Shown: positions 7,441 through 60,892 of the stretch, piece by piece | How the letters are laid out: every line of letters starts with the position of its first letter | Position numbering within the stretch: the first letter of the stretch is position 1 | Origin: Acidimicrobiia bacterium | GTDB lineage: Bacteria; Actinomycetota; Acidimicrobiia; Spongiisociales; JAHEDJ01 | Length of the DNA: 64,000 bases | Assembly (NCBI GenBank): GCA_035471805.1 | Contig: DATIPS010000058.1 | Location: 1,533 to 65,532, forward strand | Direction: 5' to 3' | Notes under the pieces: model-generated | Databases searched by the model: none | The model's input: the letters and a program-made list of their open reading frames with translations, nothing else | What the model was told of the DNA's origin: nothing | Made by a program: the position numbers and the translations under genes

Positions 7441-8049
7441 TCATTGATGGCTGGGGCCCAGCATCGCCCTGGCGAACTCGCCCCACACTCGTGCCATCCC
7501 GTTGATCGCATGGATCAGCACAAACCCGACCAGAACGGCCAACACTGCCAGCACGATCGCCTCACCCAACGTGTCGATGATCCACACTTCGTCGATCCAT
7601 CCACGACCGTCCAGGAACCAGGATCGCTCGTAGAAGAACGGCGCGGTGACCAGGGCGAATACCGATGCGGTAACGGTGATCATTACAAAGGAAACGATTC
7701 CGAAGACAAACTCGGTGAAGAGGTAGAAGACCCGCTTCCATGTCTCCGAACTCGTCACCAGGGCTTTGACCTTGGGCCACAATCCGCCTTCGACCTCAAG
7801 TCGATGGGCGGCCGGTGTCTCCTGTCCGAGAAGGAGATTGGTGGTGGTCCGTTCGAACTCCCCCATGCCGTAGGCGGCCGCCAGCACCCCAACCAGGATC
7901 GGTATTCCCAGCAAGGTGATGGACAATCCGAAACCGAGCGACAGTCCGGTAACTAGAAATACGAAATAGAAGATGCCGAGCGGGAAGGTCAACAGAAGGT
8001 ATCCGAAGTTTCTCCACGTCTGCGGTTTGGCTACTACATCAAAGAACAC
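7441..8049 (-). CDS. membrane protein with putative sensor domain (pfam13796-like)
   Basis: GTG start preceded by AGGAGG; two TM hairpins WRNFGYLLLTFPLGIFYFVFLV...; upstream 300 codons of the ORF look non-coding (Arg/Pro-rich). Confidence 0.55.
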   Translation of the reverse strand: MFFDVVAKPQTWRNFGYLLLTFPLGIFYFVFLVTGLSLGFGLSITLLGIPILVGVLAAAYGMGEFERTTTNLLLGQETPAAHRLEVEGGLWPKVKALVTSSETWKRVFYLFTEFVFGIVSFVMITVTASVFALVTAPFFYERSWFLDGRGWIDEVWIIDTLGEAIVLAVLAVLVGFVLIHAINGMARVWGEFARAMLGPSHQ

Positions 8050-13126: not shown

Positions 13127-14439
13127 ACGTGGCGCTGATTATCAGCCCAGACTACGCCTCCCACTACTTTCCTCTTTCCACCGTTGGGAGAGCGCTTGCC
13201 GAGCGCGGATACCAGGTGACGGTCGCGACCGGTCCTGCTCTGGAAAGGAGTGTGTGGAGGGACGGATTCGCATACCGCCGGCTGGTGCTTGGTCCGGGGA
13301 GCAATCCCGGTCTCATCAGAGAAGACGGCCAGCCTCCGGGTGAAGACGAGAATCTGGCGGCCTTCTTCGAGGCAAGCCGGCGGGGTATGGTCCCGACGCT
13401 CCTATACCAGGCCCGTCGGCGGCTTCACGACTTGCTGTGGCAACCTGATCAGGTGATGTCCCGCCTCGGCGGGCTGCTGGGCCGCCTGCAACCTTCCGTG
13501 GTTATTTGCGACCAGCTCTCGTATAGCGCCACCGCCGCCCTGCGAGCCCTGCAACAGCCTTATGTGGGGTTTCTTCCCGGTCACCCTTCTGCGGTCGCAC
13601 TCGATGTTGCATACGGGTATCCACCCAGTCATCCGGGCCGGCTCACCGCCGCGGATTGGGACCTCGCCGAGCTTCACGAGGTCTGCCGCAGTGTTGCCGA
13701 GCAGTTCACCGCCCGGTTCAACGAGGCCGTGGCGCGACACAACCCGAACGTGAGCGGCGTCGAGGATGCGTTCGCCGCAACGTCGGGAATGCTGACCCTC
13801 GTGAACTACCCGGGTGTGCTGGGCCGGTCCTACCGGTTGCCGGCTGATTGTCGCTTCATCGGCTCGGCCGTTCGACCGGTCGAGCTGCCCGCACGGCTGC
13901 GAGAAGTGGTTACGTCTCGGGCAAGGCCACGGGTCTATGCATCTCTCGGGAGCTTCTTCTCGACGCGTCGCGACATACTGCAGAAGCTGGTGGATTCGTT
14001 CCGTCGCCTCCCGGTTGACCTGATACTCGCCACAGGAGTAACCCCGCCGGGTGAGCTGGGCTCGCTCCCCGAGTCGTGGGTCGTCGAACCGTACCTCCCT
14101 CAACCAGCTCTGCTACCTCATTGCGACCTGGTGGTCACCCACGGCGGGAACAACACCGTGACCGAAGCCCTAACGGCCGGAAAGCCCCTGCTGGTTGGAC
14201 CGCTCTCCACAGATCAGTTTGCCGGAGCCGCCGACATCGAGCGGGCCGGCCTGGGCCTGGCGTTCGACCCCAATCATGATGACCCGGGTTCCATCGCCGA
14301 CCTCGCCGAACGGGTGCTGGGAGGTTCGGCAGTCGATGAGTCGAGGCGCCTCGGCAAAGAACTGCGGGCGAATCCAGGCCCGGAATTGGCAGCAGATCTA
14401 ATAACACGACGAGGTACGGTCACAGCGAGAACCGCCTGA
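13123..14439 (+). CDS. GT1-family UDP-glycosyltransferase (MGT-like)
   Basis: HGGNNTVTEAL...GKPLLVGPLSTDQ signature; 4-bp overlap with GT4 gene. Confidence 0.75.
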   Translation: MNVALIISPDYASHYFPLSTVGRALAERGYQVTVATGPALERSVWRDGFAYRRLVLGPGSNPGLIREDGQPPGEDENLAAFFEASRRGMVPTLLYQARRRLHDLLWQPDQVMSRLGGLLGRLQPSVVICDQLSYSATAALRALQQPYVGFLPGHPSAVALDVAYGYPPSHPGRLTAADWDLAELHEVCRSVAEQFTARFNEAVARHNPNVSGVEDAFAATSGMLTLVNYPGVLGRSYRLPADCRFIGSAVRPVELPARLREVVTSRARPRVYASLGSFFSTRRDILQKLVDSFRRLPVDLILATGVTPPGELGSLPESWVVEPYLPQPALLPHCDLVVTHGGNNTVTEALTAGKPLLVGPLSTDQFAGAADIERAGLGLAFDPNHDDPGSIADLAERVLGGSAVDESRRLGKELRANPGPELAADLITRRGTVTARTA

Positions 14440-45992: not shown

Positions 45993-46832
45993 CTACCACG
46001 TATCTTCATCCGAGATGTCGCGATAGGGACGCCAGCGGCTCAGTTTGGCTGCGGTCCGGCGAGCTCGGTTGGCGAGATCTCGCCAGAGCTGGGCACTTCC
46101 CTGTCTCGAAAGCGCCAGCTCGTCCCACCGCTGAGCGGAGGCACTGAAGGTGGCGTGGAGAGCCGGGAGAGCCCCCGGATATGCATCCCATCCCTCGGGG
46201 AGCCGGCGACCCTCGACCGGTTGGTCGAAGAGGTCGGTCAGGTACCCGTTCAAGAGCACGGTTCCCCCCCACACCGAGAGCATCATCGTTTCGAATGGGG
46301 CGTCGTCGAGTGGTCCGTATCCATCGAATCCGGGAACCACCAGGCCTTCGGTGCCGGAGAGGGCCGGGGCCGGACGGTGCAGGTCACCGAGGTCCAGCAG
46401 GATCCGCTTCGCCTCGTTGGCGGTGTCGGTCGATGCCGGGTAGTGCCTGCCGACGGCGTCCAACCAGGGGATTGCCCAATGAAGGATCCGGTCGCCCAGG
46501 AGGAATCGCCTGTCTTCGTGCGCCCGGGTCGCGATGTGTCCCCGGTCGCCGGCCCATGCCTCGCCCTCCGCGCGGGCCAGCGCTGCTCCGAAACGTGCAA
46601 GATCGGAGAGATCGCCACCTTTGATGTCGTAGTTCCAGGTCCTGGCGCGTCTCGACAGGTCTTCAGCCGGGTTGAACAAGCGGACTACCGCAGCTTCCGT
46701 AGGTGGAACGTCGATCAGGGCGGGCTTCTGCCGCCCGGTGTGCCAGGCACGGGCGACGCTCATCCATTGGGCGGCTTCGGCATTGGAGCGCGCCGCCGCA
46801 TCCAGAGAAGAAGATGTCGGTGAGGTGGTCAT
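45993..46832 (-). CDS. hypothetical protein
   Basis: 279 aa; immediately downstream of Mo-enzyme gene, possibly co-transcribed. Confidence 0.5.
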   Translation of the reverse strand: MTTSPTSSSLDAAARSNAEAAQWMSVARAWHTGRQKPALIDVPPTEAAVVRLFNPAEDLSRRARTWNYDIKGGDLSDLARFGAALARAEGEAWAGDRGHIATRAHEDRRFLLGDRILHWAIPWLDAVGRHYPASTDTANEAKRILLDLGDLHRPAPALSGTEGLVVPGFDGYGPLDDAPFETMMLSVWGGTVLLNGYLTDLFDQPVEGRRLPEGWDAYPGALPALHATFSASAQRWDELALSRQGSAQLWRDLANRARRTAAKLSRWRPYRDISDEDTW

Positions 46833-46954: not shown

Positions 46955-49738
46955 TCAATGGGCCCTGTAAGCCTCCGGGCTTGGCTTCACCGGGCGATCC
47001 AGCCAGAGCGGTCGGCGGGTTCCATCGGGCCCCGGGCCCGGCTTCGTCTGCGCCAACCATTCCCTGTAGACCTCGAAACTCTTGGAAGTGTCCACAACCA
47101 CGTCACCGTACTGATCGCCCGGCTCGGCCTTCGTGATCCGCACCCGCTGGTGCCAGGCGTGCATGCCGGACACGGGATCGGGATGCGTCGGGAAGGTGAG
47201 ATTCTGGTGAACGCCCGCATCCTTCCACCAGATGCGCTCCGAGTCGGGATCGTCCGATTTGAAAGGTTCGATTCCTTTCTTCTGACGCATCATCCACGTG
47301 CTCGAACCGGTCTTCGTGATGTCCACCAGCGCCGATGACCACCGCTCGTTTCCGAAATCGTCCGAAAGGCGCCAACGACCGAGGTGGTGGCTCGCAGCCA
47401 CGACGCCCGGGCGTATGCCTTCCGTCCGCCAGGCACGAATCACGAAGTGGCCGTTGTCGGTGTTGACCCGCACCAGGTCACCGGTGTCAAGATCGAGCGC
47501 GTCGGCATCGACCGGGTTTATCCATAGAGGGTGGCCGTGGCTGATCTCATACAGGTACTTGGCGTTTCCGGATCTCGTGTGAATGAGCGTCGGCAAGCGA
47601 AAGATCGGCAGAAGGATCCTCTCGTTGCCGGCCATGTCCATTTCTCTCCAGTAGACGTGCGTCTTGAGATACGAGGGGATCGCCTGGTCTGGCCAGCCCC
47701 ATTCGTGCATCGTCTTCGACCACCACTCCAGTTTCTTGGACGGCGATTTGAATCCGGTGACTACATCCGAGTGGACCCGCACGCCCACCGGCTGGCCCTG
47801 TCTCCGGGCAATGCCGTTCATGCCGACGTCGTCGTAGGCGACCGGTCGCTCGTGGACCTCATAGATGTCCTTCTCCACCTCGACCGCGCCGTACTTGCGC
47901 ATGAACTCGAGCGGTGTGATCCCTTCAGCGGCCGCCTTGTCGGGGAGGCCGGGCACGGAGTTGTCGAACATCCACCCGTAGTATTCGTCGACCGAGATGG
48001 GCCGGTTCGGGTCGTTGGGCGACTGGAACCATTGCTTGATGCTCAGTTCGCCGTCCGGGTCGATCCGCCACGACAAGTCGATCCAGAACTCGGTCTCTTC
48101 CCAAACCTCACCCGGATTGGCCTCGTACGTGCGCTCGTATACCTTGCCGTCTCGTTCGCCGGCCACGCGCAGGACGGGTTGGCGGAAACCAAGCCACTGC
48201 CCGGCATGGGTTTCGTAGGAGTGCGTGTCGTGTCTCTCGGCACTCACACCCATCGGCAGGACGTAATCGGCGTACCAGGCCGTCTCCGACCAGGTGGGGG
48301 TGAGGGCGACGTGGAGGCCCACCATGTCCTCGTCTGTCAGCACTTCTATCCAGCTGAACCCATCGGGGTTGGTCCAAACGGGGTTGTATACGCGGGTGAA
48401 GTAGGTGTCGAGTTTCCCCCGACCTTCCTTGAGGAAGTAGGGGAGCAATATGCTCATCTCGTGGTGAGCCAGCGGATACTCGGGCGGCCACAGGAGCTCA
48501 TTCCACCGGTTGTGGGTGGGCGGCATGTTCCAGTGGGTCGGCTTGAACTTGTCCCAGGCGCTCGGCGAGGTGCCCCCCTTGGTGCCGACCGAGCCCGTGA
48601 GGACGTGCAGGAACCACAGGGTCCGGGAGACTTGCCAACCACCCAGATTGCCCGATCCTGCCGAACGCCAGGTGTGACTGGCGAACCGGTGTCCGGCCTC
48701 GGCGATCCCCCTGGCGACCTCCACGAGACGGTCGGCATCGACACCCGACTCCTCGGCGGCCCACTCAGGGGTGTAGGAGGCGTAGGTCTCCTTCAGCACT
48801 GCGATGAACTCGCTGAACGTGCAGGGTCGATCGGGGTAGACCTCGGTGAGGGTCTGCTCCCAGTTGACCCAACGCTCCACGAAGGAGCGATCGATGGCGT
48901 CCCATTCGAGGAGCAGCCGGGCGATGGCGAGCAACATTGCTGCCTCGGTTCCCGGATAGGGCGATAGCCAGATGTCCGACATGGAGGCGGTGTTTGACAG
49001 CCGCGGGTCGATGGTGGCGAGTTTCGCACCCGCCTGCTTGCCCTCCATGATCCGTTGTGCGTGAGGGTTGAAATAGTGGCCGGTTTCCAGGTGAGAGGAC
49101 AACAGCAGAATGAATCGGGCGTTGGCGAAGTCGGCGGAAGGGCGGTCGTGTCCCATCCACATGGCGTAACCAACCCGGGCACCGGACGAGCAGATATTGG
49201 TGTGCGAGTTGTGGCCGTCGACCCCCCAGGCCTTCAGAGTGCGATCCATGAAGCCGTCCTCGCCGGGACGGCCGACGTGATACATGATCTCGTCGTTGCG
49301 ATCCTCCTGGAGCGCCTTGCGCATCCGGCCCGCGATGTCGTCGAGTGCTTCGTCCCAGGAGACCCGCTCCCACTCGCCCGAACCGCGCGGACCCTTGCGC
49401 CGCATCGGGTACAAGATGCGTTCGGGGTCGTAGACCTGGTTGATCGTTGCCGGGCCCTTGGCGCAGTTGCGTCCGCGTGATCCCGGGTGTTCGGGGTTCC
49501 CTTCGAAGCGGCGAATCTCCCCCGTGTCCTTGTCGATCACGGCAAGTAGACCGCAGGCGGATTCGCAGTTGAAACAGGTGGTCGGCACCATACGCACGTT
49601 GTGCTTGACCTTCTCCGGCCAGGCCTGTGCGTCGTACTCCTCCCAATCGTCCCACCGGTCGGGTGGCGGGAAACTGGTGAGTTCGGTTCCCGGCAGCAAT
49701 CGGGGAATCTCGAGGTCCGGCTCTCGGTGTGCGGTCAT
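46955..49738 (-). CDS. molybdopterin-guanine-dinucleotide oxidoreductase catalytic subunit (PsrA/PhsA/SoeA-like), no twin-arginine signal
   Basis: 927 aa; N-terminal CFNCESACGLL [4Fe-4S] motif; MopB domains; no RRxF in first 40 aa. Confidence 0.85.
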   Translation of the reverse strand: MTAHREPDLEIPRLLPGTELTSFPPPDRWDDWEEYDAQAWPEKVKHNVRMVPTTCFNCESACGLLAVIDKDTGEIRRFEGNPEHPGSRGRNCAKGPATINQVYDPERILYPMRRKGPRGSGEWERVSWDEALDDIAGRMRKALQEDRNDEIMYHVGRPGEDGFMDRTLKAWGVDGHNSHTNICSSGARVGYAMWMGHDRPSADFANARFILLLSSHLETGHYFNPHAQRIMEGKQAGAKLATIDPRLSNTASMSDIWLSPYPGTEAAMLLAIARLLLEWDAIDRSFVERWVNWEQTLTEVYPDRPCTFSEFIAVLKETYASYTPEWAAEESGVDADRLVEVARGIAEAGHRFASHTWRSAGSGNLGGWQVSRTLWFLHVLTGSVGTKGGTSPSAWDKFKPTHWNMPPTHNRWNELLWPPEYPLAHHEMSILLPYFLKEGRGKLDTYFTRVYNPVWTNPDGFSWIEVLTDEDMVGLHVALTPTWSETAWYADYVLPMGVSAERHDTHSYETHAGQWLGFRQPVLRVAGERDGKVYERTYEANPGEVWEETEFWIDLSWRIDPDGELSIKQWFQSPNDPNRPISVDEYYGWMFDNSVPGLPDKAAAEGITPLEFMRKYGAVEVEKDIYEVHERPVAYDDVGMNGIARRQGQPVGVRVHSDVVTGFKSPSKKLEWWSKTMHEWGWPDQAIPSYLKTHVYWREMDMAGNERILLPIFRLPTLIHTRSGNAKYLYEISHGHPLWINPVDADALDLDTGDLVRVNTDNGHFVIRAWRTEGIRPGVVAASHHLGRWRLSDDFGNERWSSALVDITKTGSSTWMMRQKKGIEPFKSDDPDSERIWWKDAGVHQNLTFPTHPDPVSGMHAWHQRVRITKAEPGDQYGDVVVDTSKSFEVYREWLAQTKPGPGPDGTRRPLWLDRPVKPSPEAYRAH

Positions 49739-49750
49739 GCGATCCCTTTC

Positions 49751-51319
49751 CTACGAGAGCGGAACACTCTGCCCGGCTTTCACGAATGCGTCGTCGGCGA
49801 ACCAGATCCCCGCCGACGCGGCTAATCCTCCAACGGCTCCTATCCATGTGGCTCCTCCGGCGAGCATGATGGAGCCGAGAGCTATCGGAACGACCACGCC
49901 GATCAGCTGTCCACCGATCCACCATTCCCTGGCGAAGTGGCCGCGGGTCATGTGGTGCATGGCCGCCTCGATGTTCCTGGTCGGGTGAGGTGTAGTCAGT
50001 TCGGCCAGTGCAATCAATCCGAGAACCGAGCAACCGATCACGAGCGTCCATCCGAATGCTCGCTCGGCCGTTTCCCCGACATCGAAGAACAGCGAGGCGA
50101 TCAAGGCCACGCCGCCGCCTGCCGCGAAAGCTCCCGCAATCATGTGGTAGAGCAGCACCGGACTCTGCCACAGGTCACGTGCTTCGGCCTGGCCGAACAG
50201 GAAGGCGGTGTATCCGGCGGTGGCGATGCCCAGCGGCAGTCCGATCCATGCCATGATCTCGACCAGGCCGTCCAACTCGAACAATCCCGCCAGGAACCAC
50301 ACGGCCAGGACGGCCGCATAGGCGCTCAGAATGTAGGCGCCCCGCACCAGCCACGATCCCGGGTTGCCTTTGATGATCAGGTAGTGGAATCGATCGGGGC
50401 GTTTGAGGTCCCAGATCAGCAGCACGCCGGTCAGCGCCAGAAACAATCCGGCGACCAGCGGTGTCGTCCAACGCATCCAGTTGCTTGTGAGTGAGGCGCC
50501 GAACAGCATTGCCATCGCAACGGCGATCGCCAGCCCGGCCGCGATACCTTTCGTGAGGAAGTAGGCGGACACGCGCCATCCCCACGGTGCCGGGTGATCG
50601 GTGTTGTATACGACGCGCGGTGGAGCGGCAGCATGATCCGAGGCCGCCGAAGGAGTCTGCCGGCGGCCGTTGGAGCCGGGGGTCAGGTCGACTGCCATGA
50701 AAGACCCTTCCGATGCTGGTTCGCGCCAAATGCCGCCATCGTGGAGGCTCGTCGCCGCCAGGGGATCGATGCTGGCGCCGTCTGCCCCCAGGTAGAAGAG
50801 GTTGGGGCCGGTTCCCTGTTCGGGAGCGCGGACGGTGGTGACCCGCGTCCGCACCAACCCGGCGATCTCAGTTGTGGGATCGTCCAGGTCGCCGGCGACG
50901 ATGGCGTGTTCGGGACAGACGACGACGCAAGCCGGCTCGAGGCCCACCTCGACGCGGTGGACGCAGTAGTTGCACTTCTGAGCGGTGTGCTCGTTGGGGT
51001 CGATGTAGAGCGAGTCGTACGGGCAAGCCTGCATGCACGATTTGCACCCGATGCAGCGGCTGGTATCGAAGTCGACGATGCCGTCGGAGCGCTTGTTGAG
51101 CGCAGTGGTCGGGCAGATCGCCACGCACGGTGCGTCGGTGCAATGGTTGCACCGCATTACCGAGAAGAAACGCTTGGTTTCCGGCCAGGCGCCTTTCTCT
51201 ACGTACTTGACCCATGTGCGGTTGACCCCCAGCGGAACCCCGTGCTCGGTCTTACAGGCGACCGTGCATGCGTGGCAGCCAATGCATTTCGTCTGGTCGA
51301 TGACAAATCCGTACCTCAG
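49751..51319 (-). CDS. fused 4Fe-4S ferredoxin (PsrB/NrfC/SoeB-like) and NrfD/PsrC-like membrane anchor
   Basis: First-ATG ORF starts at 51157 (MRCNHC). In-frame upstream sequence encodes RYGFVIDQTKCIGCHACTVACK, the canonical first Cys cluster. True start is probably a non-ATG codon near 51319 (CTG after GGGAGGG); upstream TAG at 51338. Confidence 0.7.
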   Translation of the reverse strand: MRYGFVIDQTKCIGCHACTVACKTEHGVPLGVNRTWVKYVEKGAWPETKRFFSVMRCNHCTDAPCVAICPTTALNKRSDGIVDFDTSRCIGCKSCMQACPYDSLYIDPNEHTAQKCNYCVHRVEVGLEPACVVVCPEHAIVAGDLDDPTTEIAGLVRTRVTTVRAPEQGTGPNLFYLGADGASIDPLAATSLHDGGIWREPASEGSFMAVDLTPGSNGRRQTPSAASDHAAAPPRVVYNTDHPAPWGWRVSAYFLTKGIAAGLAIAVAMAMLFGASLTSNWMRWTTPLVAGLFLALTGVLLIWDLKRPDRFHYLIIKGNPGSWLVRGAYILSAYAAVLAVWFLAGLFELDGLVEIMAWIGLPLGIATAGYTAFLFGQAEARDLWQSPVLLYHMIAGAFAAGGGVALIASLFFDVGETAERAFGWTLVIGCSVLGLIALAELTTPHPTRNIEAAMHHMTRGHFAREWWIGGQLIGVVVPIALGSIMLAGGATWIGAVGGLAASAGIWFADDAFVKAGQSVPLS

Positions 51320-51375: not shown

Positions 51376-51600
51376 CTACGCTTTCTCGACCACGAAGTGA
51401 TACTCGCTGTCCTGTTCGAACTGTTCCTTCAACGGGTTGCCCGTGTCCTTCGACCAGGCCGGGATGTCGCTGAGGGCGCCGCGGTCGGTTGCGACGAGTT
51501 CGATTGTCTGGCCGGCGGCGGCACCGCTGACGGCCTGACTGAGTTTGAGAACGGGCATCGGGCATTGAAGATTGCGAGCGTCGACGATGATGTCGGCCAT
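51376..51600 (-). CDS. tusA: TusA-family sulfurtransferase
   Basis: 74 aa, CPMP (CPxP) active-site motif at residues 13-16. Confidence 0.75.
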   Translation of the reverse strand: MADIIVDARNLQCPMPVLKLSQAVSGAAAGQTIELVATDRGALSDIPAWSKDTGNPLKEQFEQDSEYHFVVEKA

Positions 51601-51612
51601 GTGCTCTCCTTT

Positions 51613-52140
51613 CTAGATGAACAAGCTGATCGAAGCCTCTTTCATGAGGCTAATTGCGGAACCCGCCCCGACGGGTGCGGAGAGGCCGTCGATGAGATGC
51701 TCATCCTTGAGGCCCATCAAATCCATCGTCATCTGGCACGGCCAGAGGTTCACTCCGAGGCTGATCGCCATTTCGAGCAACTCCTGTACGGAAGCGACGT
51801 TGTGGTCTTCCGCCAGGCCGCGCATCATTGCCGGGCCCATGCCGGCGAAATGGAGCTTGGACAATCCGAGTTTGGACGGCGACGCGTTGTGAAACATCGA
51901 AAGCATCTTCTGGCGCCAGTCGTCGCCCGTCAGGCCGGCATCCTCCTTCTTGAGGATGCCGAGTCCCCAGAAGGTGAAGAAGACCGTGACATCCATGCCG
52001 TAGGCGGCACCGGTGGTGGCCAGGATGAGCACCGGCCAGGCCTTGTCCAGATCGCCCGAAGCGGCGATGATGACCATCTTCTCCTTCTCAGGAGTCGTCT
52101 TATCGGCGACAGGTTCGGTCTGATGAGCAGTATCGGTCAT
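51613..52140 (-). CDS. DsrE/DsrF-family sulfur-relay protein
   Basis: AGGAGG RBS then MTDTAHQ; DsrE-like Rossmann fold. Confidence 0.6.
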   Translation of the reverse strand: MTDTAHQTEPVADKTTPEKEKMVIIAASGDLDKAWPVLILATTGAAYGMDVTVFFTFWGLGILKKEDAGLTGDDWRQKMLSMFHNASPSKLGLSKLHFAGMGPAMMRGLAEDHNVASVQELLEMAISLGVNLWPCQMTMDLMGLKDEHLIDGLSAPVGAGSAISLMKEASISLFI

Positions 52141-52283: not shown

Positions 52284-52613
52284 ATGCAATCCGTCGCCGA
52301 CGAGCTAACCGCGCTGCACGCCAGGGTCTGCAAGGGCATAGCGGACCCCAAGCGCCTCCTCATCCTCAACGCCCTCCGTGGCGGTGAGCGCTCCGTGATG
52401 GAGCTGTGCGACGATCTGGGCTTGCCTCAGGCCAATGTATCGCAACATCTCGCGGTGCTTCGGGACCGCGGTCTGGTCTGCACCCGCAGAGATGCTCAAC
52501 GGGTGTTCTACTCGTTGACTTCGGTCAAGATCGTCGAAGCCATCGATCTCTTGCGCGAGGTGATGGCAGAGCAGGCAGGCTCGGGTAGCGAGTCGCGCGC
52601 AGCCGGCCGGTAG
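52284..52613 (+). CDS. ArsR/SmtB-family transcriptional regulator (possible BigR/SqrR/CstR-like sulfur sensor)
   Basis: wHTH LADPKRLLILNAL...ELC signature; Cys at positions 16, 42, 66 of the short form; start at ATG 52284. Confidence 0.75.
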   Translation: MQSVADELTALHARVCKGIADPKRLLILNALRGGERSVMELCDDLGLPQANVSQHLAVLRDRGLVCTRRDAQRVFYSLTSVKIVEAIDLLREVMAEQAGSGSESRAAGR

Positions 52614-52676
52614 CCGGAGTCCCGGCCTCCAGACGCTCAAGAACCCCTTGCCGCGCGTCTTGCCCTCCCATAAGAT

Positions 52677-52715
52677 ACATGCGCCGATATGCATGTCAGG
52701 CACCGAGATTGCCTG
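52677..52715. promoter_or_regulatory. two adjacent inverted repeats (ACATGC-n8-GCATGT; CAGGCA-n7-TGCCTG) directly upstream of the RBS of the rhodanese-MBL gene
   Basis: candidate operator / translational hairpin; overlaps GAGGAGGGA RBS region. Confidence 0.3.
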
Positions 52716-52730
52716 TGAGGAGGGAGACCA

Positions 52731-53858
52731 ATGCCCGGCTCGATTACCACCGACGATCTTGCCGCGCGGATCGAGGATCCCGAGAACGCCCCCTACATCC
52801 TCGACTTGCGTGCCGGGGACCAGTTCGAACGCTGGCGCATCGAGGGCAAACTGGCGCTCGACACGGTGAATGTGCCTTACTGGACGGCGCTTGGAGACAT
52901 CGAAGGCATCGCCGCCACGCTTCCCGACGATCGCGACGTGATAGCTATCTGCGCGCACGGAGGATCCTCGGGCATGGTGGTTGAGATGATGGACAAGCCG
53001 AACGTCAAGAACCTCGATGGTGGCATGGACCTGTGGGCTAACACGCTCATACCGCGAGTCCTTTTCGACGACGGCACTCACTTCGTGATCCAGCTGGATC
53101 GAATGGCAAAGGCGTGCCTGTCCTATGCCGTCGGTGCGCGCGGTCACAACATGGCCGTCATTGATCCGGCCGCCGACATCGACCGCTACCTGGCGCTGGC
53201 CGAGAGCTACGGGTCGAAACTGTCCGACATCTTCGATACCCATCTCCACGCCGACCACATATCGATCGGCGCTGCGATGGCCGAGCGCACCGGCGGCACC
53301 TACCGGATCGCGCCGGGCGATGCGGAGGACGCGGTCTTCGAGTACTCGCCTCTGGAGGACGGCCAGGTGTTCACGTTCGGCGAGCTTGAGATGATCGTAC
53401 GGTCGGTGGCGACGCCCGGGCATACTCCCGGATCGACATCACTCGAAGTGCACGGACGATTCCTGATGACGGGTGATGCCGTGTTCGTGACCGGCGTTGG
53501 ACGGCCGGATCTCGGCGGCGAGACCGAGCCCTGGGCCAGGGACCTGTTCAACACGATTCATGTCAAGTTGTCGCCGCTCGATCCGAACCTCGAGGTCTGC
53601 CCCGCGCACTACACGAGCCGCGCCGAATCGCGTGACGACGGGACCTTGCGCCGCAATCTCGGGGATCTGCTCGAGAATGATCCGGTGGTCTCGATTGCGG
53701 ACGAGTCGGAGTTCGTTGATTTCGTGGTGTCCCACCTCGGCGAGCCCCCGGCGATCTACAACGATATCCGAAAGGTGAACCTGGGCTTGCTCAGGCCCGA
53801 CGCAGAGAAGGCGAAGGAACTCGAAGTCGGCCGCAATGAGTGCGCCCTTTCCAAGTGA
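52731..53858 (+). CDS. rhodanese-MBL fold fusion protein (persulfide dioxygenase-like)
   Basis: N-terminal rhodanese with active-site Cys (ICAHGGSSG); C-terminal MBL fold with HLHADH (HxHxDH) motif. Confidence 0.8.
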   Translation: MPGSITTDDLAARIEDPENAPYILDLRAGDQFERWRIEGKLALDTVNVPYWTALGDIEGIAATLPDDRDVIAICAHGGSSGMVVEMMDKPNVKNLDGGMDLWANTLIPRVLFDDGTHFVIQLDRMAKACLSYAVGARGHNMAVIDPAADIDRYLALAESYGSKLSDIFDTHLHADHISIGAAMAERTGGTYRIAPGDAEDAVFEYSPLEDGQVFTFGELEMIVRSVATPGHTPGSTSLEVHGRFLMTGDAVFVTGVGRPDLGGETEPWARDLFNTIHVKLSPLDPNLEVCPAHYTSRAESRDDGTLRRNLGDLLENDPVVSIADESEFVDFVVSHLGEPPAIYNDIRKVNLGLLRPDAEKAKELEVGRNECALSK

Positions 53859-53896
53859 CGGGTGGCCGGCTCCGGAACCCGGGTAACCTCTCTGTC

Positions 53897-54244
53897 GTGA
53901 GCATTCCCCGGAGCCCGATTCTTCCGAACAACGGAAGCCGTGCGCGCGACCATCTCGCCAACGAGCGGACCTACCTCGCCTGGGTGAGGACTGCGCTCGG
54001 CATCATCGGTCTGGGTGTCCTCGTGGAGAAGCTCATTGAGTTGCAGGGCGTGGCGGCGGAAATCGCCGGGTTGAGCATGGTGGCCATGGGGGCTGCGGCG
54101 CTCGTTTACGCAACATTTCGCTACGAGCGAGTGCGGAGGCAGCTCGAAGAAGGGATGTTCCAGACCGCATCCACCGGCCCGATCGTGATCACTGCGCTGG
54201 GGCTGATCATGACGGTCGTCGCCGTCGTTTTCGTCCTGCTGTAG
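53897..54244 (+). CDS. DUF202 (YidH) family small membrane protein
   Basis: LANERTYLAWVRT signature followed by two TM helices. Confidence 0.6.
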   Translation: MSIPRSPILPNNGSRARDHLANERTYLAWVRTALGIIGLGVLVEKLIELQGVAAEIAGLSMVAMGAAALVYATFRYERVRRQLEEGMFQTASTGPIVITALGLIMTVVAVVFVLL

Positions 54245-54252
54245 GCGGAGAC

Positions 54253-55779
54253 TTGACGCCGCCGACAGGAAAGAGAGGCCGCCCGCGAACGGGGGACGTC
54301 ATCGCCGGGCTGAGTGTTGCCCTCATCCTCGTCCCGCAATCGCTGGCCTACGCCGAACTGGCCGGTTTGCCGCCCTTCGTTGGCCTGTACGCGGCTGCGC
54401 TGCCGCCCCTTGCCGCCGCCTTCCTCGCTTCATCCCCGTATCTCCAGACAGGGCCGGTGGCGATGACGGCCTTGCTGACCTTCGGAGCTCTGAGAGGGAT
54501 AGGGGCCGAGCCGGGCACCGCCGAGTACGTGGCGCTGGCCGCCTTGCTGGCGCTCATCGTTGGGGCGGTGCGGACCTTGATCGGGGTCGCCCGCGGCGGG
54601 TTTCTCGCCTACTTCATGTCGCAGCCCGTACTGATCGGGTTCACCTCTGCCGCGGCAATCCTCATTCTCTCCTCACAGTTCCCCACCGCGGTCGGCGTGT
54701 CGGCCCCGGCCTCCAGAATCCTCGGAAAGCTCTGGTGGACACTGACCCACTTCTCAGAATGGGATCCGGCGGCCGTCGTAATATCGCTGACGACCATCGG
54801 GCTGGTTGTAGGGGGGCGGAGGCTGCATCGGCTTTTCCCCGGCGTGTTGGTGGCAGTCATCGCAGGGATCCTCTACAGCACGATGTCCGGCTACGAAGGA
54901 TTCATCGTCGGAGACGTTCCGGCCGGCCTACCGCCCTTTTCGCTCGACCTGCCGTGGCATTCATTGCCGTCGCTGCTCGTCAGCGGTGTGGTCATTGCAC
55001 TCGTCGGGTTTGCCGAAGCGGCCGCCATCTCGCGCACGTTCGCCGCCCAGGATCGTCAGACCTGGAACCCGAGCAAGGAGTTCGTGAGCCAGGGCATCGC
55101 CAATCTCGCCTCCGGCATCTCGGGCGGCTTTCCGGTGGGCGGGTCGTTCTCCCGCTCGTCCGTGAATCGTCTGGCCGGTGGCAAGACCCGTTGGTCCGGT
55201 GCCGTCACCGGGATTGCGGTGCTGGCCTTCCTCCCGGTCGCCGGCGTGCTTTCTCCGCTACCCCAGGCAGTTCTCGCAGCCATCGTGATTTCTGCAGTCG
55301 CCCGCCTCATCCGGATCTCGCCTTTGTGGTCGATGTGGAGCTATTCGAAACCCCAGACCACGGTGCTGTGGACGACTTTCCTCCTGACTCTGATTCTCAG
55401 CCCTCGCATCGAGATCGCCGTGATTGTCGGGATCGGGCTCGGAATCCTCATTCACCTGTGGCGCGAGATCAAAATCGGCGTGCAAGCGAGCTACGACGGC
55501 GGGACGTTGCATCTGACACCGACCGGAGTCTTGTACTTCGGCTCTGCGCCGCAGCTGAATGAAGCGCTGCTGGCGTTGTTGACGAGCCATCCTGAGGCCA
55601 GAGCCATGGTATTCGATCTCGGCAATCTGGGTCGGATCGACTACACCGGCGCGCTCGTCCTCAAGAGCGTGGCGGACGAGGCAGTGGCTGCAGGACTCGA
55701 GATCTCATTCGAGAATGTTCCGCCGCAAACGAGGCGGATACTGGGCCGCGTGCTCGAGCAGAAGCTGCCGATTCCCTAG
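54253..55779 (+). CDS. SulP-family anion permease with C-terminal STAS domain
   Basis: TTG start; GLSVALILVPQSLAYA SulP N-terminal motif; C-terminal STAS. Confidence 0.8.
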   Translation: MTPPTGKRGRPRTGDVIAGLSVALILVPQSLAYAELAGLPPFVGLYAAALPPLAAAFLASSPYLQTGPVAMTALLTFGALRGIGAEPGTAEYVALAALLALIVGAVRTLIGVARGGFLAYFMSQPVLIGFTSAAAILILSSQFPTAVGVSAPASRILGKLWWTLTHFSEWDPAAVVISLTTIGLVVGGRRLHRLFPGVLVAVIAGILYSTMSGYEGFIVGDVPAGLPPFSLDLPWHSLPSLLVSGVVIALVGFAEAAAISRTFAAQDRQTWNPSKEFVSQGIANLASGISGGFPVGGSFSRSSVNRLAGGKTRWSGAVTGIAVLAFLPVAGVLSPLPQAVLAAIVISAVARLIRISPLWSMWSYSKPQTTVLWTTFLLTLILSPRIEIAVIVGIGLGILIHLWREIKIGVQASYDGGTLHLTPTGVLYFGSAPQLNEALLALLTSHPEARAMVFDLGNLGRIDYTGALVLKSVADEAVAAGLEISFENVPPQTRRILGRVLEQKLPIP

Positions 55780-56029: not shown

Positions 56030-56965
56030 TCAACCGGCGGTCGGCGGGCTGATCGGCGGCGGCTGGCGGAAGAGTCCCGCCGGCACGGGCGATTCTGTTC
56101 TTATCAGAGCGAGGTTCCAGGAGGGAGAAGAGCCGAGCGCCCACCTGAGCACGCCGACGGTGCGGCGGCCGACCCAAACCGATCCCGGAACCCGCCGGAC
56201 GCCGAGTATCAGCCGCAACCGGGCCGGGACCGTTGCGACCGCCGCGTTGAAGAGGAGCTTGTAGCCGATTCGTTGTGACCTCGACAGCGGGGGGTCGCGA
56301 AGGAATCCGATGACCTCCTGCATGCCGGTGGACGAATCCAGATCCGGATGCTCGGAGACCCATGCCGACAGTGCGGCGGATTCGCCCGGCAGGGGATCAG
56401 CACTAAGCATCGATCCGACCATTGTCTGTTCGCTCACGAACAGGTCTGCCTCTTCGGACGTCAACCGGTCGCGTCCGAACACCTGGTAGGCGGTCATGAA
56501 TGATTCGGTGAGCGCATTGTGTACCCATGCTGCGAACTCGGGGGTGGCGGCCGTGTAACTCCGGCCCCTCGAGGACTTGCCGCGTACCGGGCGGTGCGCC
56601 CTTCGCACGACGTCAACGGCCTGCTCCACCTCGGGCATCGCGCCGTAGCAAGTAGCGGTCACATACGCCGACGTTCGGGAGAGTCTTCCGAGAGGATCGG
56701 ACCGGTAGGCGGAGTGGTCGGCCACCCCCGCCACCACCTCCGGATGCGCCGCCTGGATGAGCAACGCCCGAATCCCGCCGACGAATGCTGCAACGTCGCC
56801 GACCACCCGCCATGTCACCGAATCCGGACCGAATAGCCCGGGATCACCTCTGTAGTCCAGTGTCGAAGCCAGCGGGTAGCCGGCGTGGCTGAATGGATCG
56901 GTGACACCGGCCGTCAAGCGGCTGCGGATGTATTCAGCCGGTCGGGCAATGGTCGGGAGGGGCAT
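56030..56965 (-). CDS. MpaB-family (DUF2236) oxygenase-like protein
   Basis: ~310 aa; start at internal Met (MPLPTIARP); overlapping ORF 55776..56363 judged spurious. Confidence 0.55.
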   Translation of the reverse strand: MPLPTIARPAEYIRSRLTAGVTDPFSHAGYPLASTLDYRGDPGLFGPDSVTWRVVGDVAAFVGGIRALLIQAAHPEVVAGVADHSAYRSDPLGRLSRTSAYVTATCYGAMPEVEQAVDVVRRAHRPVRGKSSRGRSYTAATPEFAAWVHNALTESFMTAYQVFGRDRLTSEEADLFVSEQTMVGSMLSADPLPGESAALSAWVSEHPDLDSSTGMQEVIGFLRDPPLSRSQRIGYKLLFNAAVATVPARLRLILGVRRVPGSVWVGRRTVGVLRWALGSSPSWNLALIRTESPVPAGLFRQPPPISPPTAG

Positions 56966-57301
56966 GCCGAAAGTCTTCCACGCTCGCGCCGCAATCGGGA
57001 ATTCTCGAGCTGTTCCCCGGCCCAATCCATAGCCCCGGCGCCGGAAGCGAAGATCTCGATGGGTCTCTTCGTTTCCGTTGAGGGGATTGGCTTGGCCCTT
57101 GTCAGGCTGGTACCCGACCCGACAATGAGAGGTGCTGCGGGCTCTGATGATTCCACCGACGACGCGCCCAACGCCTCGCGGGCCGTCCGATCGGCATACC
57201 CGACGGGTCGGTGAGCCGGGTGCGCGGAGCGGTTTGCTCGATCCTGTAGGTCATCTCATGGCCGCCGCCACTCCGGAGCTCACTCGGCGGTGCGCAGTTT
57301 C

Positions 57302-60300
57302 TCAACTCGCATCGATGTTTGATGGTTGTCGGGACGAGGGGGGAAGGTGTGGCCCGGCCGGCCGCTGAGGAATCAGCCCCGCATCGAGAATCAGCTCTTG
57401 CAGCTCGGGCTCGAGGCGCGAGATCTCGAGTTCGAGTTCTACCCATGCGCCGCCGGCTCCCTGCCGGTCGCCGGCCCTGGCAACATCGTTCAGATCTCCG
57501 GCGGCTGCGGACACTGCGGTGGCCCCCAGCAGGCTGGAGCTGCCCTTCAGGCGGTGGGCAGCCTTGGCGACTGCACTCAAGTCTCCTTGGTCGATCCCGG
57601 TCTTGATGGCCCCGACCAGCTCCGGGAGCTCAACCATGAAGAGATCAGCCATTTCCGCGAGAACGTCGAGCATCCCCTCGACTCTGCCGAGGGCGTCCTG
57701 GCGGTCGAATACCCTTGGCCGGCCGGCTTGATCGGCGAAGCCGGACCGATCGGTGCGCGTCGGGTTGCCGGGCACCATCTGCTCGAGGGTGGCGAACAGC
57801 TCTTCCGCTCGGAAAGGCTTGGAGAGGAAGCCGTCCATACCGGCTTTCAGACATCTGTCTCGATCGGAATCCATCGCGTGAGCGGTGAGAGCGATGATGG
57901 GAATGTGGGTCTCGTCGTTCTCGTTGTCGCGAATGACCCGGGCCGCTTCGAGGCCGTCCATCCCCGGCATTTGGATATCCATCAGGACGGCGTCGAAGTT
58001 GCCCTCTGCGACCGACCGTACTGCCTCGTAGCCGTTCTCGACTGCGACCGCGACGTGCCCGCGTTTTTCGAGGAGCCTCAACGCAAGTCGCCGATTCGTG
58101 GGGCTGTCGTCGGCCACGAGGACCCGCATCCGTGTGCGCCGTTCCCGGATCCAATGGCGGGTAACCAGCTGATCGGGTCGGGACGGTCTGCTGAGAACCC
58201 TGACCATCTCGAGGAGCTCGGAGGCGTCATAGGGTCGAGCGAGGTATCCGGCCACACCGATCGATCTGTATTCGGCAGCTTCGCCGCGCCGGCCCGAACT
58301 CGGGCAGGCAATGATCGGGATGCCTGAGAACTCTCCGAGTCGCAATACCCGCGACGAAACCTCGAAAGTGGTTCGCTCGGTGTCGACGATGATGACGTTG
58401 GGTCGCCTGTTCAGCTGCTCGACCTCGAGCATCACGCTGACCGCAGTGGAGAGATCGGTCGCCCCGACCGACGCGACGTTGCCCTGTCGGAGCATCTCGA
58501 CGATGTTCCGCTGGGTGGCCGGCGAGTCCGTGATGAGGAGCGTCTGTATCTTCCCGGACGCAACCGGGCCGAGGGATTGGAGAAGAACGGCGGTGTCGTC
58601 GGCTACACCCAGAGTCGCTGTGAAGTGAAAGGTGCTGCCGGCTCCGAGGGCGCTCTCGACCCAGATTCTGCCGCCCATCTTCTCGACGAGTTCCGCGGTG
58701 ATCGTGAGCCCGAGGCCCGTGCCGCCGAAGCGGCGGGTGGTAGATCCGTCGGCCTGGGCAAAGGCTTCGAATATCTGTTCCTGCTTGTCTTCGGGTATCC
58801 CGACGCCGGTATCGGCTACCAAGACGTGCAGGTCGATGTCCGTGTCGGTGACTCTTTCCCCCTTGACGCTGACGAGAACACGACCGACATTGGTGAACTT
58901 GACCGAGTTACCGACCAGATTGAAGAGAATCTGGCGAAGTCGCCCGGGGTCACCGACGACCGCGTCCGGGAGCTGCGGGTCGAGTTCGTAGTCGAGTGAC
59001 AGTCCCTTTTCTGCCGCTCTCACTGCGATGGTCCGTATGGTGTCGCCGACCGTCTCGGTGAGACTGAACGGTATCTCCTCCAGCTCGAGCCGCCCTGCTT
59101 CGATCTTGGAGATGTCGAGAAGATCGTTGACGAGCGTTAGAAGGCCGTCTACAGACAGTTTCACCGTCCCCAGGTACTCACGCTGCTCGGCCGTGAGATT
59201 CGTGGAGAGGGTCAGTTCGGTCATTCCGAGAATGGCGTTCATAGGGGTGCGGATCTCATGACTGACGTTGGCCAGGAACTGCGACTTGGCGTCTGTGGCT
59301 CGCTCGGCCGTCTCCTTCGCTTCCCGCAGAGCAGTTTCCGCAGTCCGCCGCTTCTGTTCGGTTCGGATCGCGTCGGCGAGGCCTGCGACCGTGGCTACGA
59401 ACGGCTCCAGGTCCTCGGCGATTCGCGAGGTGTACCCGCCGGGACGGTTGGCGACGGCGAAGGCACCGGAAACCGATCCGTCCAGCCCGAAAGGTACGAC
59501 CATTACCGAATCGAGTGCGGAAGCATCGCCTGGGAACAGGGGGAGATCCTCAGCGTTCGGTCTGTCGGCTATCACGACTTCCCGGGTCCCGAGGGCCAGC
59601 CCGATCAGTCCTCCCGGCGCAGCCTGTTGGGTCTGCCCGGCCGGGTTCCAGCCTTCGCCCTGGGTGGCCTGGAGTTGCATCTGGCCGGCCTCGTCCATTT
59701 CGACGATTACCCCCCATGGGCTGGCGGTCAGGGTGAGCAGGTCGTCGAGGAGTGGCCCGAACTGGTGCAGGCGGTTGCCGTTGTCCTGGATGAACCGTCG
59801 CTGGGCTCTCGCCACGTGATCCAGCAGGGCGTTCTTCGCTGCCAGGTCGCGTTGGGCTCTCTTGAGCCGGGACACGTCGACGATCGAAAGCACGACGCGG
59901 CTCAGGTCCGGGTTGCCGTTGGTATGGAACGGCACCTCCCAGTGCATCACACAGTCGATGGGGTTCCCCCGGAGGGTTGATCCGGAGAAGTCGATGTAGA
60001 AACTCGATCGCTTCTCCCAAATGGCCAGGATCTGTTCGGTGAAGGCCAGATAGGTGCCGGCATCGATGGTTGTCGGGTTGATCGGTCCGATCAGATCGGC
60101 GCGACTGCCGGCCTCGACGAGGTCGACCGCCGCGTCGTTGACGTCGGTCACCTTTATGGCGGCGATGGCAGCCTCGAGGACCTCAGGATGGTCCCCGAGA
60201 TACGAGCGGAGGTCCTCGACACCGTCCCGGCGGAGGCGGTCGAGGATGGCTGCAGTGTCGAGATAGTTCTCCTGCCAGATCGAGGTCGGTGCGCTGTCGA

Positions 60301-60892
60301 ACAGAGAGCGGTAGCTGAGCTCGCTGGTTCTCACCGCGTTGGAGATCCTGTGGAGGGCGCCGGCGATGATCACGAAGACCGCGACCTGGAGAGCCATCGT
60401 GAAGAGGTGGGCTTCCCGGTCCCCGGCAAAGATCCCGGCGCCCCGGTCGGCCGCCCACACCAGCTGCAGCGCCCAGATCGTACCCAGGTAGGCGAGGTAC
60501 CATTTCTGGTGCTTCTTGGGTAGGAACAGCAGTCCAACCGCGCCGATCGCCGCTACTCCAACCAGCAGTGGGCTCCAACGCTCTGCCGGTTGGACCGGCA
60601 ACTGGAGCGCGGCCAGTGTGGCGACCACCAGAACCAGTTGCGGGGCGTTGATACTGCCGCGGTTGATCTGGAGAAAAGCAAAACCCGCGGTGACGATCGA
60701 CAGCGCCCCGAGGAAGCCGACACCCGCGTCTCTCGACAGGGTGGCGGCGATGATCAGCGGCACTCCGAGCGCGACTCCACCCCAACTGAGGCCGCGCACC
60801 ACCGTTCGCTCGATGGCGGATGCCGTGTCGTCGACGGCGTCGCGCGCCGCGGAGATATCTGTCCCGGCGCGTAGTCCCTGTAGCTCGACCAT
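57302..60892 (-). CDS. hybrid sensor histidine kinase: membrane domain-PAS-GAF-HisKA-HATPase-REC(degenerate)-REC-HPt
   Basis: 1196 aa; H-box [12 protein letters not shown]-boxes; canonical REC ([12 protein letters not shown]...[14 protein letters not shown]); HPt HRLKGSS. Confidence 0.85.

Follow-up and report, generated by a model that had tools for sequence, protein, structure and literature searches.

Persulfide dioxygenases (PDOs) are the main aerobic route by which toxic sulfane sulfur is cleared, and to our knowledge only the glutathione-dependent enzymes and CstB are understood among them. According to a preprint on CstB, its iron site has no small-thiol binding features and uses the enzyme's own cysteine as substrate: Cys201-Gly202, in a mobile loop held by Arg154, acts as a glutathione mimic, the substrate proper is the persulfide on Cys201, from which the oxidised sulfur goes on to the rhodanese Cys408 (PMC12934615). 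YrkH of Bacillus subtilis consists of rhodanese and metallo-beta-lactamase (MBL)-like domains; its gene is among those most induced by a garlic-containing oil blend (PMC13652750), and YrkH is up-regulated by Hg(II) (PMC12563154). In the yrkE-yrkF-yrkH-yrkI-yrkJ cluster of B. licheniformis, yrkH is induced by elemental sulfur and YrkH was described as "likely a second PDO" (PMC9918477). A 2026 paper on cable bacteria named the PDO-like MBL proteins with an N-terminal rhodanese Rho-PDO, as a type reported before and uncharacterised; in the literature searched, the name occurs in this paper only (PMC13047784). Here, we describe a gene encoding such a protein, referred to below as Rho-PDO, in a 64,000-nucleotide stretch of an Acidimicrobiia bacterium (assembly GCA_035471805.1, contig DATIPS010000058.1, positions 1,533 to 65,532 of the forward strand; hereafter the window).

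The gene product is probably a YrkH-type ("Rho-PDO") enzyme, in which a single-domain rhodanese lies N-terminal to a CstB-like (type III) mononuclear non-haem-iron PDO that would convert carrier- or persulfide-fed sulfane sulfur to sulfite. The gene is an intact open reading frame (ORF; 52731-53858, plus strand) with an ATG start and a GGAGG 8-12 nucleotides upstream, and its product has the length, about 375 amino acids, of all its close homologues. Pfam assigns residues 6-104 to Rhodanese (36.4 bits, cut-off 22.2) and residues 129-272 to Lactamase_B (33.6 bits, cut-off 22.7). This association of an N-terminal rhodanese with a PDO-type MBL domain is far beyond chance. Both domains had been recognised in a first, sequence-only reading of this DNA, the rhodanese by a catalytic cysteine in a CAHGG loop and the MBL domain by HLHADH and downstream His/Asp ligands, and both hold. 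Cys74 of the CAHGGSS loop shares its alignment column with Cys314, the catalytic cysteine of BpPRF, the PDO-rhodanese fusion of Burkholderia (Paraburkholderia) phytofirmans (5ve3), whose C314S mutant chain has a serine in this column; as expected for PF00581, the domain has the rhodanese fold and its catalytic cysteine opens a six-residue loop. In the MBL domain, HLHADH occupies residues 171-176 and is followed by His231 and Asp249, to which Arg258 and His293 can be added.

Conservation was assessed in 113 sequences: the query and 112 full-length matches, each representing one 50%-identity cluster. HLHADH, TPGHT, TGD, GVGRPDL, and the PAH of His293 are 97-100% conserved. His171 is invariant (113/113), the three predicted iron ligands, His171, His231, and Asp249, each lie in a PDO motif and are kept in 112-113 sequences, and the range becomes 110-113 when the signature Arg258 is included. 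By motif block, and not by a residue-by-residue count, the His231 motif is expected to carry the equivalents of CstB His119 and ETHE1 His135, and Arg258 would correspond to ETHE1 Arg163. CstB Asp145 is expected within the block that holds Asp249, and CstB Arg154, which is BpPRF Arg142, belongs to the block equivalent to that of Arg258 (CstB numbering from PMC12934615).

The sequence-only reading had named a best alignment to glyoxalase II or RNA-processing MBLs as the result that would speak against it. In all comparisons the PDOs lead instead. With phmmer against the PDB, the matches are Alicyclobacillus 3tp9 (4e-19), BpPRF (2e-18), MxPDO (4e-15), and ETHE1 (3e-13), and those to glyoxalase II (GloB) range from 1e-8 to 1e-4. 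With the family profile, the order is 3tp9 (4e-63), CstB (9e-56), BpPRF (3e-42), MxPDO (1e-39), and ETHE1 (2e-31), with GloB at about 1e-24. Foldseek places only PDOs at ranks 1-22 (E values of 1e-15 to 4e-12), glyoxalase II following from 1e-9. The NCBIfam GloB model (TIGR03413) scores 56.7 bits, against an equivalog cut-off of 200.8, and GloB ranks under every PDO. Identities as glyoxalase II or as an RNA-processing MBL were rejected on this ranking. The MBL fold is closest to that of the solved PDOs, and the 2-His-1-Asp facial triad and the GxGRxD arginine are both present.

Within the PDOs, the sequence-only reading had described the MBL domain as "ETHE1-type". As judged from the alignments, the core is of persulfide-dioxygenase type, and CstB and its type III branch, not ETHE1, are its nearest relatives. 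In common with CstB and 3tp9, it has a helical extension to P340..Y..I...N350, the GRPDL motif, and a long active-site loop. Canonical PDOs lack the long loop, and the alignment with BpPRF shows a 7-residue gap; the H-D-Y motif that follows the last histidine in canonical enzymes is absent from Rho-PDO, which has H-Y-T in its place.

The Cys-Gly pair of the CstB loop was sought by alignment in the corresponding loop of Rho-PDO (residues 291-311), which is one residue shorter than that of CstB (192-213) and 7 residues longer than that of BpPRF; no cysteine was found there. CstB Cys201 itself corresponds to a one-residue insertion next to Glu299, a conserved residue of the Rho-PDO family. At the C-terminus, the family shares the motif E365-x-G367-x-N369-x-C371-A372, whose residues are kept in 104-106 of the 113 sequences (Glu365, 104; Gly367, 106; Asn369, 105; Cys371, 105), that is, about as strongly as the metal ligands. 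Cys74 is conserved in 111 sequences, together with Cys371 in 104, and together with both Cys129 and Cys371 in 92. The role of the CstB Cys-Gly would most obviously fall to x-Cys371-Ala, at the flexible C-terminus. When AlphaFold2 was given a diverse instead of a shallow alignment, the predicted local distance difference test (pLDDT) of the tail rose from 47-81 in the first model to 82-92. In the diverse-alignment model, DSSP assigns a strand or bridge to 372-373; further ones appear at 251 and at 256-257, the latter immediately preceding Arg258, and all three are absent from the first model. The modelling suggests that the tail docks on the active-site loop.

The third cysteine, Cys129, is aligned with CstB Gln13 and with the threonine of canonical PDOs and is therefore expected beside the metal site. 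In canonical enzymes, this threonine belongs to a Thr-Asp-water network linked to product choice (PMC12934615). Loss of Cys129 is found mainly in variants in which His176 is changed to tyrosine. Cys129 was also considered as a family-specific feature, and this was rejected: LGCASY, the motif holding its equivalent, is frequent in CstB-type proteins, GC(A/L)SY being common among them. LGC(A/L)SY is found in numerous CstB-type proteins from Actinomycetota, Chloroflexota, and Thermodesulfobacteriota (loci L057-L085 of our comparison, e.g., L066, L068, and L072), which have a cysteine at the position of Gln13 of Staphylococcus aureus CstB, a variation undiscussed in the CstB preprint (PMC12934615).

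We propose that sulfane sulfur would arrive as a persulfide on TusA or DsrE2-like carriers or on a low-molecular-weight thiol and be taken up by Cys74 of the rhodanese. It would then be transferred to Cys371 on the C-terminal tail (ELExGxNxCA), which would dock at the GVGR258PDL loop and bring the persulfide on Cys371 to the Fe(II) bound by His171, His231, and Asp249. The Cys371 tail would in this way replace the Cys201-Gly202 "glutathione mimic" loop of CstB. O2 would oxidise the outer sulfur and sulfite would be released; alternatively, the product could be a Cys-S-sulfonate resolved to thiosulfate. The specific relay from Cys74 to Cys371 and to the iron is a tentative part of this proposal, about which our doubts outweigh our confidence. 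In the Acidimicrobiia cluster, the sulfite might be oxidised by the adjoining cytoplasm-facing Psr/Soe-like molybdoenzyme or exported by the DUF202 protein and SulP, and the adjoining ArsR-family repressor would control expression. More generally, YrkH-type enzymes might be "self-substrate" PDOs working without a small thiol: carriers would load Cys74, Cys74 would load Cys371 as a swinging arm mimicking the Cys-Gly of glutathione, and the iron would oxidise the bound persulfide; in Acidimicrobiia, the enzyme would form with the molybdoenzyme and SulP an energy-conserving module leading from sulfane sulfur to sulfite and sulfate. We offer this generalisation as a speculative and doubtful one.

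Several points weigh against the assignment and the scheme built on it. The Rho-PDO family is without any assayed member, and in a Desulfobulbales clade HxQADY replaces HxHxDH (PMC13047784). We found this variant in 7 of the 113 sequences, and as these Desulfobulbales members are strictly anaerobic, at least some of the family may work without O2. The ten flanking ORFs checked between 37 and 64 kb of the window include no SQR gene. The glutathione-contacting residues of canonical PDOs are mapped as Arg258 and the missing H-D-Y only. The tail is disordered in the first model, from the shallow alignment, and its pairing partner is deduced only from the changes in pLDDT and DSSP assignment. Cys129, which adjoins the metal site and recurs in CstB-type proteins, could carry the sulfur instead of Cys371 or in addition to it.

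The alternative that survives best is a conventional PDO acting on small-thiol persulfides, such as those of mycothiol, cysteine, or coenzyme A, with a rhodanese that only makes or consumes thiosulfate and a C-terminal cysteine that has a structural or a regulatory part, perhaps as a redox switch. The conservation of all metal ligands and of the signature arginine is what such an enzyme would show. There is also precedent for it, since in Blh (PMC5823870) and BpPRF (PMC9163753) the fused sulfurtransferase and PDO are coupled via free glutathione persulfide and thiosulfate, and the type III PDOs that have been tested work in Escherichia coli (PMC5702731). However, the core is closest to CstB, whose iron site uses its own cysteine (PMC12934615), the long CstB-type loop is present and H-D-Y absent, and the tail motif matches the metal ligands in conservation. 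We regard this alternative as unlikely, if worth keeping in mind.

Another possibility, which is a variant of our proposal and not exclusive of it, is that the Cys-S-sulfonate from the iron site is passed, as in CstB, to persulfidated Cys74 and that only thiosulfate is released. It would be in keeping with the CstB-like core, with the presence of both a mobile cysteine and a rhodanese cysteine, and with Cys129 in place of the canonical threonine, whose network of hydrogen bonds reportedly promotes the release of sulfite (PMC12934615). However, the CAHGGSS loop is devoid of arginine, in contrast to CstB, where electrostatic steering depends on Arg370 and Arg413, and the neighbouring genes encode a TauE sulfite exporter in Bacillota and the Psr/Soe-like enzyme in the Acidimicrobiia locus; release of thiosulfate only is in our view distinctly unlikely. 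Finally, an O2-independent MBL hydrolase or lyase combined with a sulfurtransferase, performing a glyoxalase-II-like hydrolysis of thioesters, or else a hydrolysis of S-sulfonates or polysulfanes, and no dioxygenation, would agree with the source databases' names ("glyoxylase-like hydrolase", "MBL fold metallo-hydrolase"), the weak NCBIfam matches to GloB and SolJ, and the presence in Rho-PDO of all seven residues of the binuclear MBL site, and is kept alive for part of the family by the members from strictly anaerobic Desulfobulbales (PMC13047784), but the ranking of PDOs above glyoxalase II makes it very improbable.

The architecture of an N-terminal rhodanese followed by a PDO, which the sequence-only reading had set against the known fusions with a C-terminal rhodanese, is not unusual but known and widespread, and the protein of the window is an Acidimicrobiia member of it. 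A word-indexed search returned 1,926 relatives of Rho-PDO; the 120 listed are 65-90% identical to it, nearly all have about 375 amino acids with PF00581 and PF00753, and the source names, where given, are "MBL fold metallo-hydrolase [Acidimicrobiia]" or "glyoxylase-like hydrolase". When the representatives of 50%-identity clusters were searched exhaustively, 7,357 matched at E<=1e-3 and at least 215 clusters at E<=1e-30. Among the 149 matches listed, 112 are 340-420 amino acids long, and most cover nearly the whole query (about residues 3-374).

In a scan of one genome per species, full-length members, aligned over about residues 4-374 at 28-42% identity, were found in Actinomycetota, many Bacillota (Bacillus, Cytobacillus firmus, Peribacillus, and Alkalihalobacterium), Terriglobia, Bacteroidota, Ignavibacteria, Trueperaceae, haloarchaea (Haladaptatus, Natrinema, and Natrialba), and Nitrososphaeria. 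These are mostly lineages that use mycothiol, bacillithiol, or gamma-glutamylcysteine and are not known to use glutathione. Such a distribution fits a dioxygenase that carries its own thiol and is independent of a small thiol. In Cytobacillus (L017), the gene order is Rhodanese, DsrE_2, TusA-Rhodanese, Rho-MBL, TusA, TauE, and DUF202. As this is the yrkE-yrkF-yrkH-yrkI-yrkJ cluster with TauE, the Bacillota members correspond to YrkH. The family is thus a large one spanning several phyla, to which YrkH is connected by synteny and for which the name Rho-PDO was available (PMC13047784).

The domain order is indeed the inverse of that of CstB and BpPRF. Blh, listed with them in the sequence-only reading as a fusion with a C-terminal rhodanese, has to be taken off that list: it consists of DUF442 (residues 1-141) followed by ETHE1 (PMC5823870), and the NCBIfam Blh profile agrees, its HxHxDH region spanning positions 187-231 out of 423. 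With Blh, there is thus already one characterised enzyme in which a sulfurtransferase, albeit of another fold, precedes the PDO. Membership in Blh (NF040641) or, for the neighbouring regulator, in BigR (NF040642) was rejected, because the scores are 24.3 bits against 625 and 62.5 bits against a cut-off of 155, respectively, and because Rho-PDO carries PF00581 and not DUF442.

An independent fusion event, as had been suggested, receives modest support. A neighbour-joining tree built from 228 columns of the MBL domain (no bootstrap) has two clades, one of 60 proteins with an N-terminal rhodanese and one of 23 genome-derived type III proteins that are CstB-type or stand alone, which fits separate fusion events. 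The N-terminal rhodanese scores higher against single-domain rhodaneses (3iwh, 3foj, and 3gk5) than it does against that of CstB. A related Acidimicrobiia contig (L003) encodes, about 3 kb from its N-terminal-rhodanese gene, a CstB-type paralogue of 451 amino acids with Lactamase_B followed by Rhodanese (12492-13847, minus strand). Both domain orders therefore coexist in one genome. The features of the gene and its neighbourhood are given in table 1.

Table 1. Coordinates, within the 64,000-nucleotide window, of the Rho-PDO gene, its domains and motifs, and the adjoining genes.
Feature	Position	Strand	Basis or remark
Rho-PDO (YrkH-type) gene	52731..53858	+	ORF and translation, 375 amino acids plus stop; Pfam Rhodanese and Lactamase_B
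Rhodanese domain, residues 6-104	52746..53042	+	
Rhodanese active-site loop C74-AHGGSS	52950..52970	+	Cys74 aligned with BpPRF catalytic Cys314; coordinates checked
PDO-type MBL domain with helical extension, residues 129-352	53115..53786	+	
Cys129 (G-C-L-S-Y), second-sphere position	53115..53117	+	Kept in 101/113
H171-L-H173-A-D175-H176 motif, His171 predicted Fe ligand	53241..53258	+	Aligned with CstB His56 and His58
His231 (TPGHT), predicted Fe ligand	53421..53423	+	Kept in 112/113; TPGHT block common to CstB and canonical PDOs
Asp249 (TGD), predicted Fe ligand	53475..53477	+	Kept in 112/113; (S/T)GD block common to CstB and canonical PDOs
Arg258 (GVGRPDL), PDO-signature arginine	53502..53504	+	Kept in 110/113; GRPDL / GR(T)D block common to CstB, BpPRF, and ETHE1
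Long active-site loop P291-AHYTSRAESRDDGTLRRNLG, with His293 and Glu299	53601..53663	+	Length and Cys-Gly comparison with CstB and BpPRF
C-terminal tail KELEVGRNEC371ALSK (family motif ELExGxNxCA)	53814..53855	+	Conservation in 113 sequences; model pLDDT
Molybdopterin oxidoreductase catalytic subunit	46955..49738	-	Pfam Molybdop_Fe4S4, Molybdopterin, Molydop_binding
Fused 4Fe-4S (PsrB/TtrB-like) and NrfD/PsrC-like membrane subunit	49751..51157	-	Pfam Fer4_11 and NrfD; NCBIfam TtrB, DsrO
TusA sulfur carrier	51376..51600	-	Pfam TusA, 75 bits; conserved neighbour
DsrE2-like sulfur carrier, 175 amino acids from internal ATG	51613..52140	-	Pfam DrsE_2, 164 bits
ArsR/SmtB-family regulator, 109 amino acids from ATG at 52284	52284..52613	+	Pfam HTH_5; NCBIfam metalloregulator, 82 bits
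Palindrome-like ACATGCG...ATGCATGT element, candidate operator	52660..52700	.	Related elements in L001, L003, L004
DUF202 membrane protein	53840..54244	+	Pfam DUF202, 73.7 bits; start uncertain: GTG at 53840, 53855, or 53897
SulP-STAS anion transporter	54253..55779	+	Pfam Sulfate_transp and STAS; TIGR00815

The same arrangement of genes is found in other Acidimicrobiia and Actinomycetota contigs, where the enzymes are 40-68% identical to Rho-PDO. TusA and DsrE2-like genes adjoin family members in four phyla, represented by Actinomycetota, Bacillota, Terriglobia, and a haloarchaeon (Haladaptatus). The fused 4Fe-4S/NrfD subunit is conserved in L001-L008 and L021, the SulP-STAS gene downstream in L001, L003, L006, and L008, the molybdoenzyme gene next to TusA and DsrE2 in related contigs, and an ArsR-family regulator gene upstream of the enzyme gene in the relatives.

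The molybdoenzyme (927 amino acids) has no RR motif at its N-terminus, that is, no twin-arginine signal, and its nearest solved relatives are the polysulfide/thiosulfate reductase PsrA (2vpw) and ArrA. In facing the cytoplasm and standing beside sulfur carriers, it presumably resembles the SoeABC sulfite:quinone oxidoreductase, and we label it Psr/Soe-like; it may be a SoeA-like cytoplasmic sulfite dehydrogenase. The Fe-S and NrfD/PsrC-like subunits share one ORF of 468 amino acids (455-545 in relatives), whose start corresponds to position 100 of the TtrB profile; the first cluster-binding part of a normal PsrB/TtrB thus seems to be missing, or the start is miscalled. A 279-amino-acid ORF (45993-46832, minus strand) without a Pfam match could encode an accessory or chaperone protein of the molybdoenzyme complex. 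An unannotated ORF of 246-266 amino acids also follows the molybdenum subunit in L001 and L004.

Among the ArsR-family homologues adjoining the enzyme genes, only one cysteine is invariant, Cys16 in LHAxxCK, where BigR/SqrR have a pair, so that, if they are persulfide sensors, they must sense in another way. Manual alignment revealed ATGCG..CGCAT(ATG) elements upstream of the Rho-PDO gene in four loci (the window and, upstream of position 8001, L001, L003, and L004), that of L004 being a perfect palindrome (CATATGCG-N8-CGCATATG). This element is a candidate operator, to which the adjoining ArsR-family regulator might bind. Scans for promoters, terminators, and inverted repeats around the Rho-PDO gene gave nothing above background.

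A DUF202 gene lies downstream of the Rho-PDO genes in Acidimicrobiia (in the window and at 9213-9572 of L003) and after TauE in Cytobacillus (9340-9702 of L017). This recurrence suggests that the DUF202 protein takes part, in a way not recognised so far, in the handling of sulfite or sulfate. Beyond the sulfur cluster, the window encodes a protein with an MpaB/Lcp-type oxygenase domain (56030-57025, minus strand) and a 1,196-amino-acid hybrid sensor kinase (57302-60892, minus strand). Between 47000 and 59000, both strands also contain many long overlapping ORFs in alternative frames, such as one of 372 amino acids antisense to the Rho-PDO gene (52305-53423, minus strand). These result from the high G+C content (63%) and are not genes; the real frames have a third-position G+C content (GC3) of about 0.75-0.81.

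With at least 215 clusters at 50% identity, from bacteria as well as archaea, the family described here is large; in Bacillus, sulfur stress induces it strongly, and models of cable bacteria have drawn on it. Its reversed domain order, common and already noted, is of less interest than the C-terminal cysteine arm, the partnership with carriers, and the link with a molybdoenzyme in Acidimicrobiia. New here are the conserved cysteine trio, with a C-terminal cysteine modelled as docked in place of the CstB Cys-Gly loop, the obligatory-looking partnership with TusA and DsrE2-type carriers, and, in Acidimicrobiia, the association with a cytoplasmic molybdoenzyme, which could conserve energy from sulfite. 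If true, the self-substrate module would explain sulfane sulfur oxidation in glutathione-free lineages that are abundant in soils and the ocean. If the cysteine-trio, carrier, and molybdoenzyme links were all to fail, Rho-PDO would be one more annotated MBL-rhodanese protein in a sulfur-stress operon.

Among known systems, Rho-PDO is most like YrkH of B. subtilis and B. licheniformis and the Rho-PDO proteins of Bacillota, Desulfobulbales, and cable bacteria, with which it shares an N-terminal rhodanese followed by a PDO-like MBL domain within about 370-380 amino acids, the C-terminal cysteine motif, and TusA and DsrE-like neighbours. The YrkH-type members of Bacillota are 37-41% identical to it over residues 4-374; B. 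subtilis YrkH itself is linked by synteny and domain description, not by direct sequence comparison. The gene context typical of YrkH, a DsrE-like YrkE and TusA (YrkI/YrkF) together with an anion exporter, is present in the window and in related loci. Unlike the YrkH loci, the Acidimicrobiia locus has an ArsR-type and not a CsoR/CstR-type regulator, SulP and not TauE, and, in addition, the Psr/Soe-like molybdoenzyme. Rho-PDO also keeps HxHxDH, in contrast to the cable-bacteria clade with HxQADY.

The closest solved relatives of its MBL domain are two type III PDO-rhodanese fusions, S. aureus CstB (3r2u) and Alicyclobacillus 3tp9, which share the helical extension, the GRPDL arginine, the long loop, and a fused rhodanese with a catalytic cysteine. 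In CstB, however, the rhodanese is C-terminal, behind a pseudo-rhodanese spacer, whereas Rho-PDO has neither this spacer nor any domain past residue 352. The loop Cys201-Gly202 of CstB has no counterpart in the loop of Rho-PDO, which has a C-terminal cysteine tail instead, and CstB Gln13 and THIHADF correspond to Cys129 and THLHADH. BpPRF is likewise a fusion of a PDO and a rhodanese and shares the catalytic cysteine, the iron ligands, and the arginine, but it has a C-terminal rhodanese, a short loop, and H-D-Y, and belongs to the canonical enzymes that act on glutathione persulfide. Blh of Xylella and Agrobacterium resembles Rho-PDO in having a sulfurtransferase before the PDO, an adjoining ArsR-family regulator (BigR), and an anion exporter in the operon (PMC5823870); it differs in its N-terminal DUF442 domain, of phosphatase-like fold and not a PF00581 rhodanese, and in its type II PDO. 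Finally, ETHE1 and the type I PDOs (4chl, 4ysb, 2gcu, and 8zbd) have in common with Rho-PDO the fold, the His-His-Asp triad, HxHxDH, and the GxGRxD arginine, but they are single-domain, glutathione-specific enzymes with a short loop and H-D-Y, and are about 21-25% identical to it.

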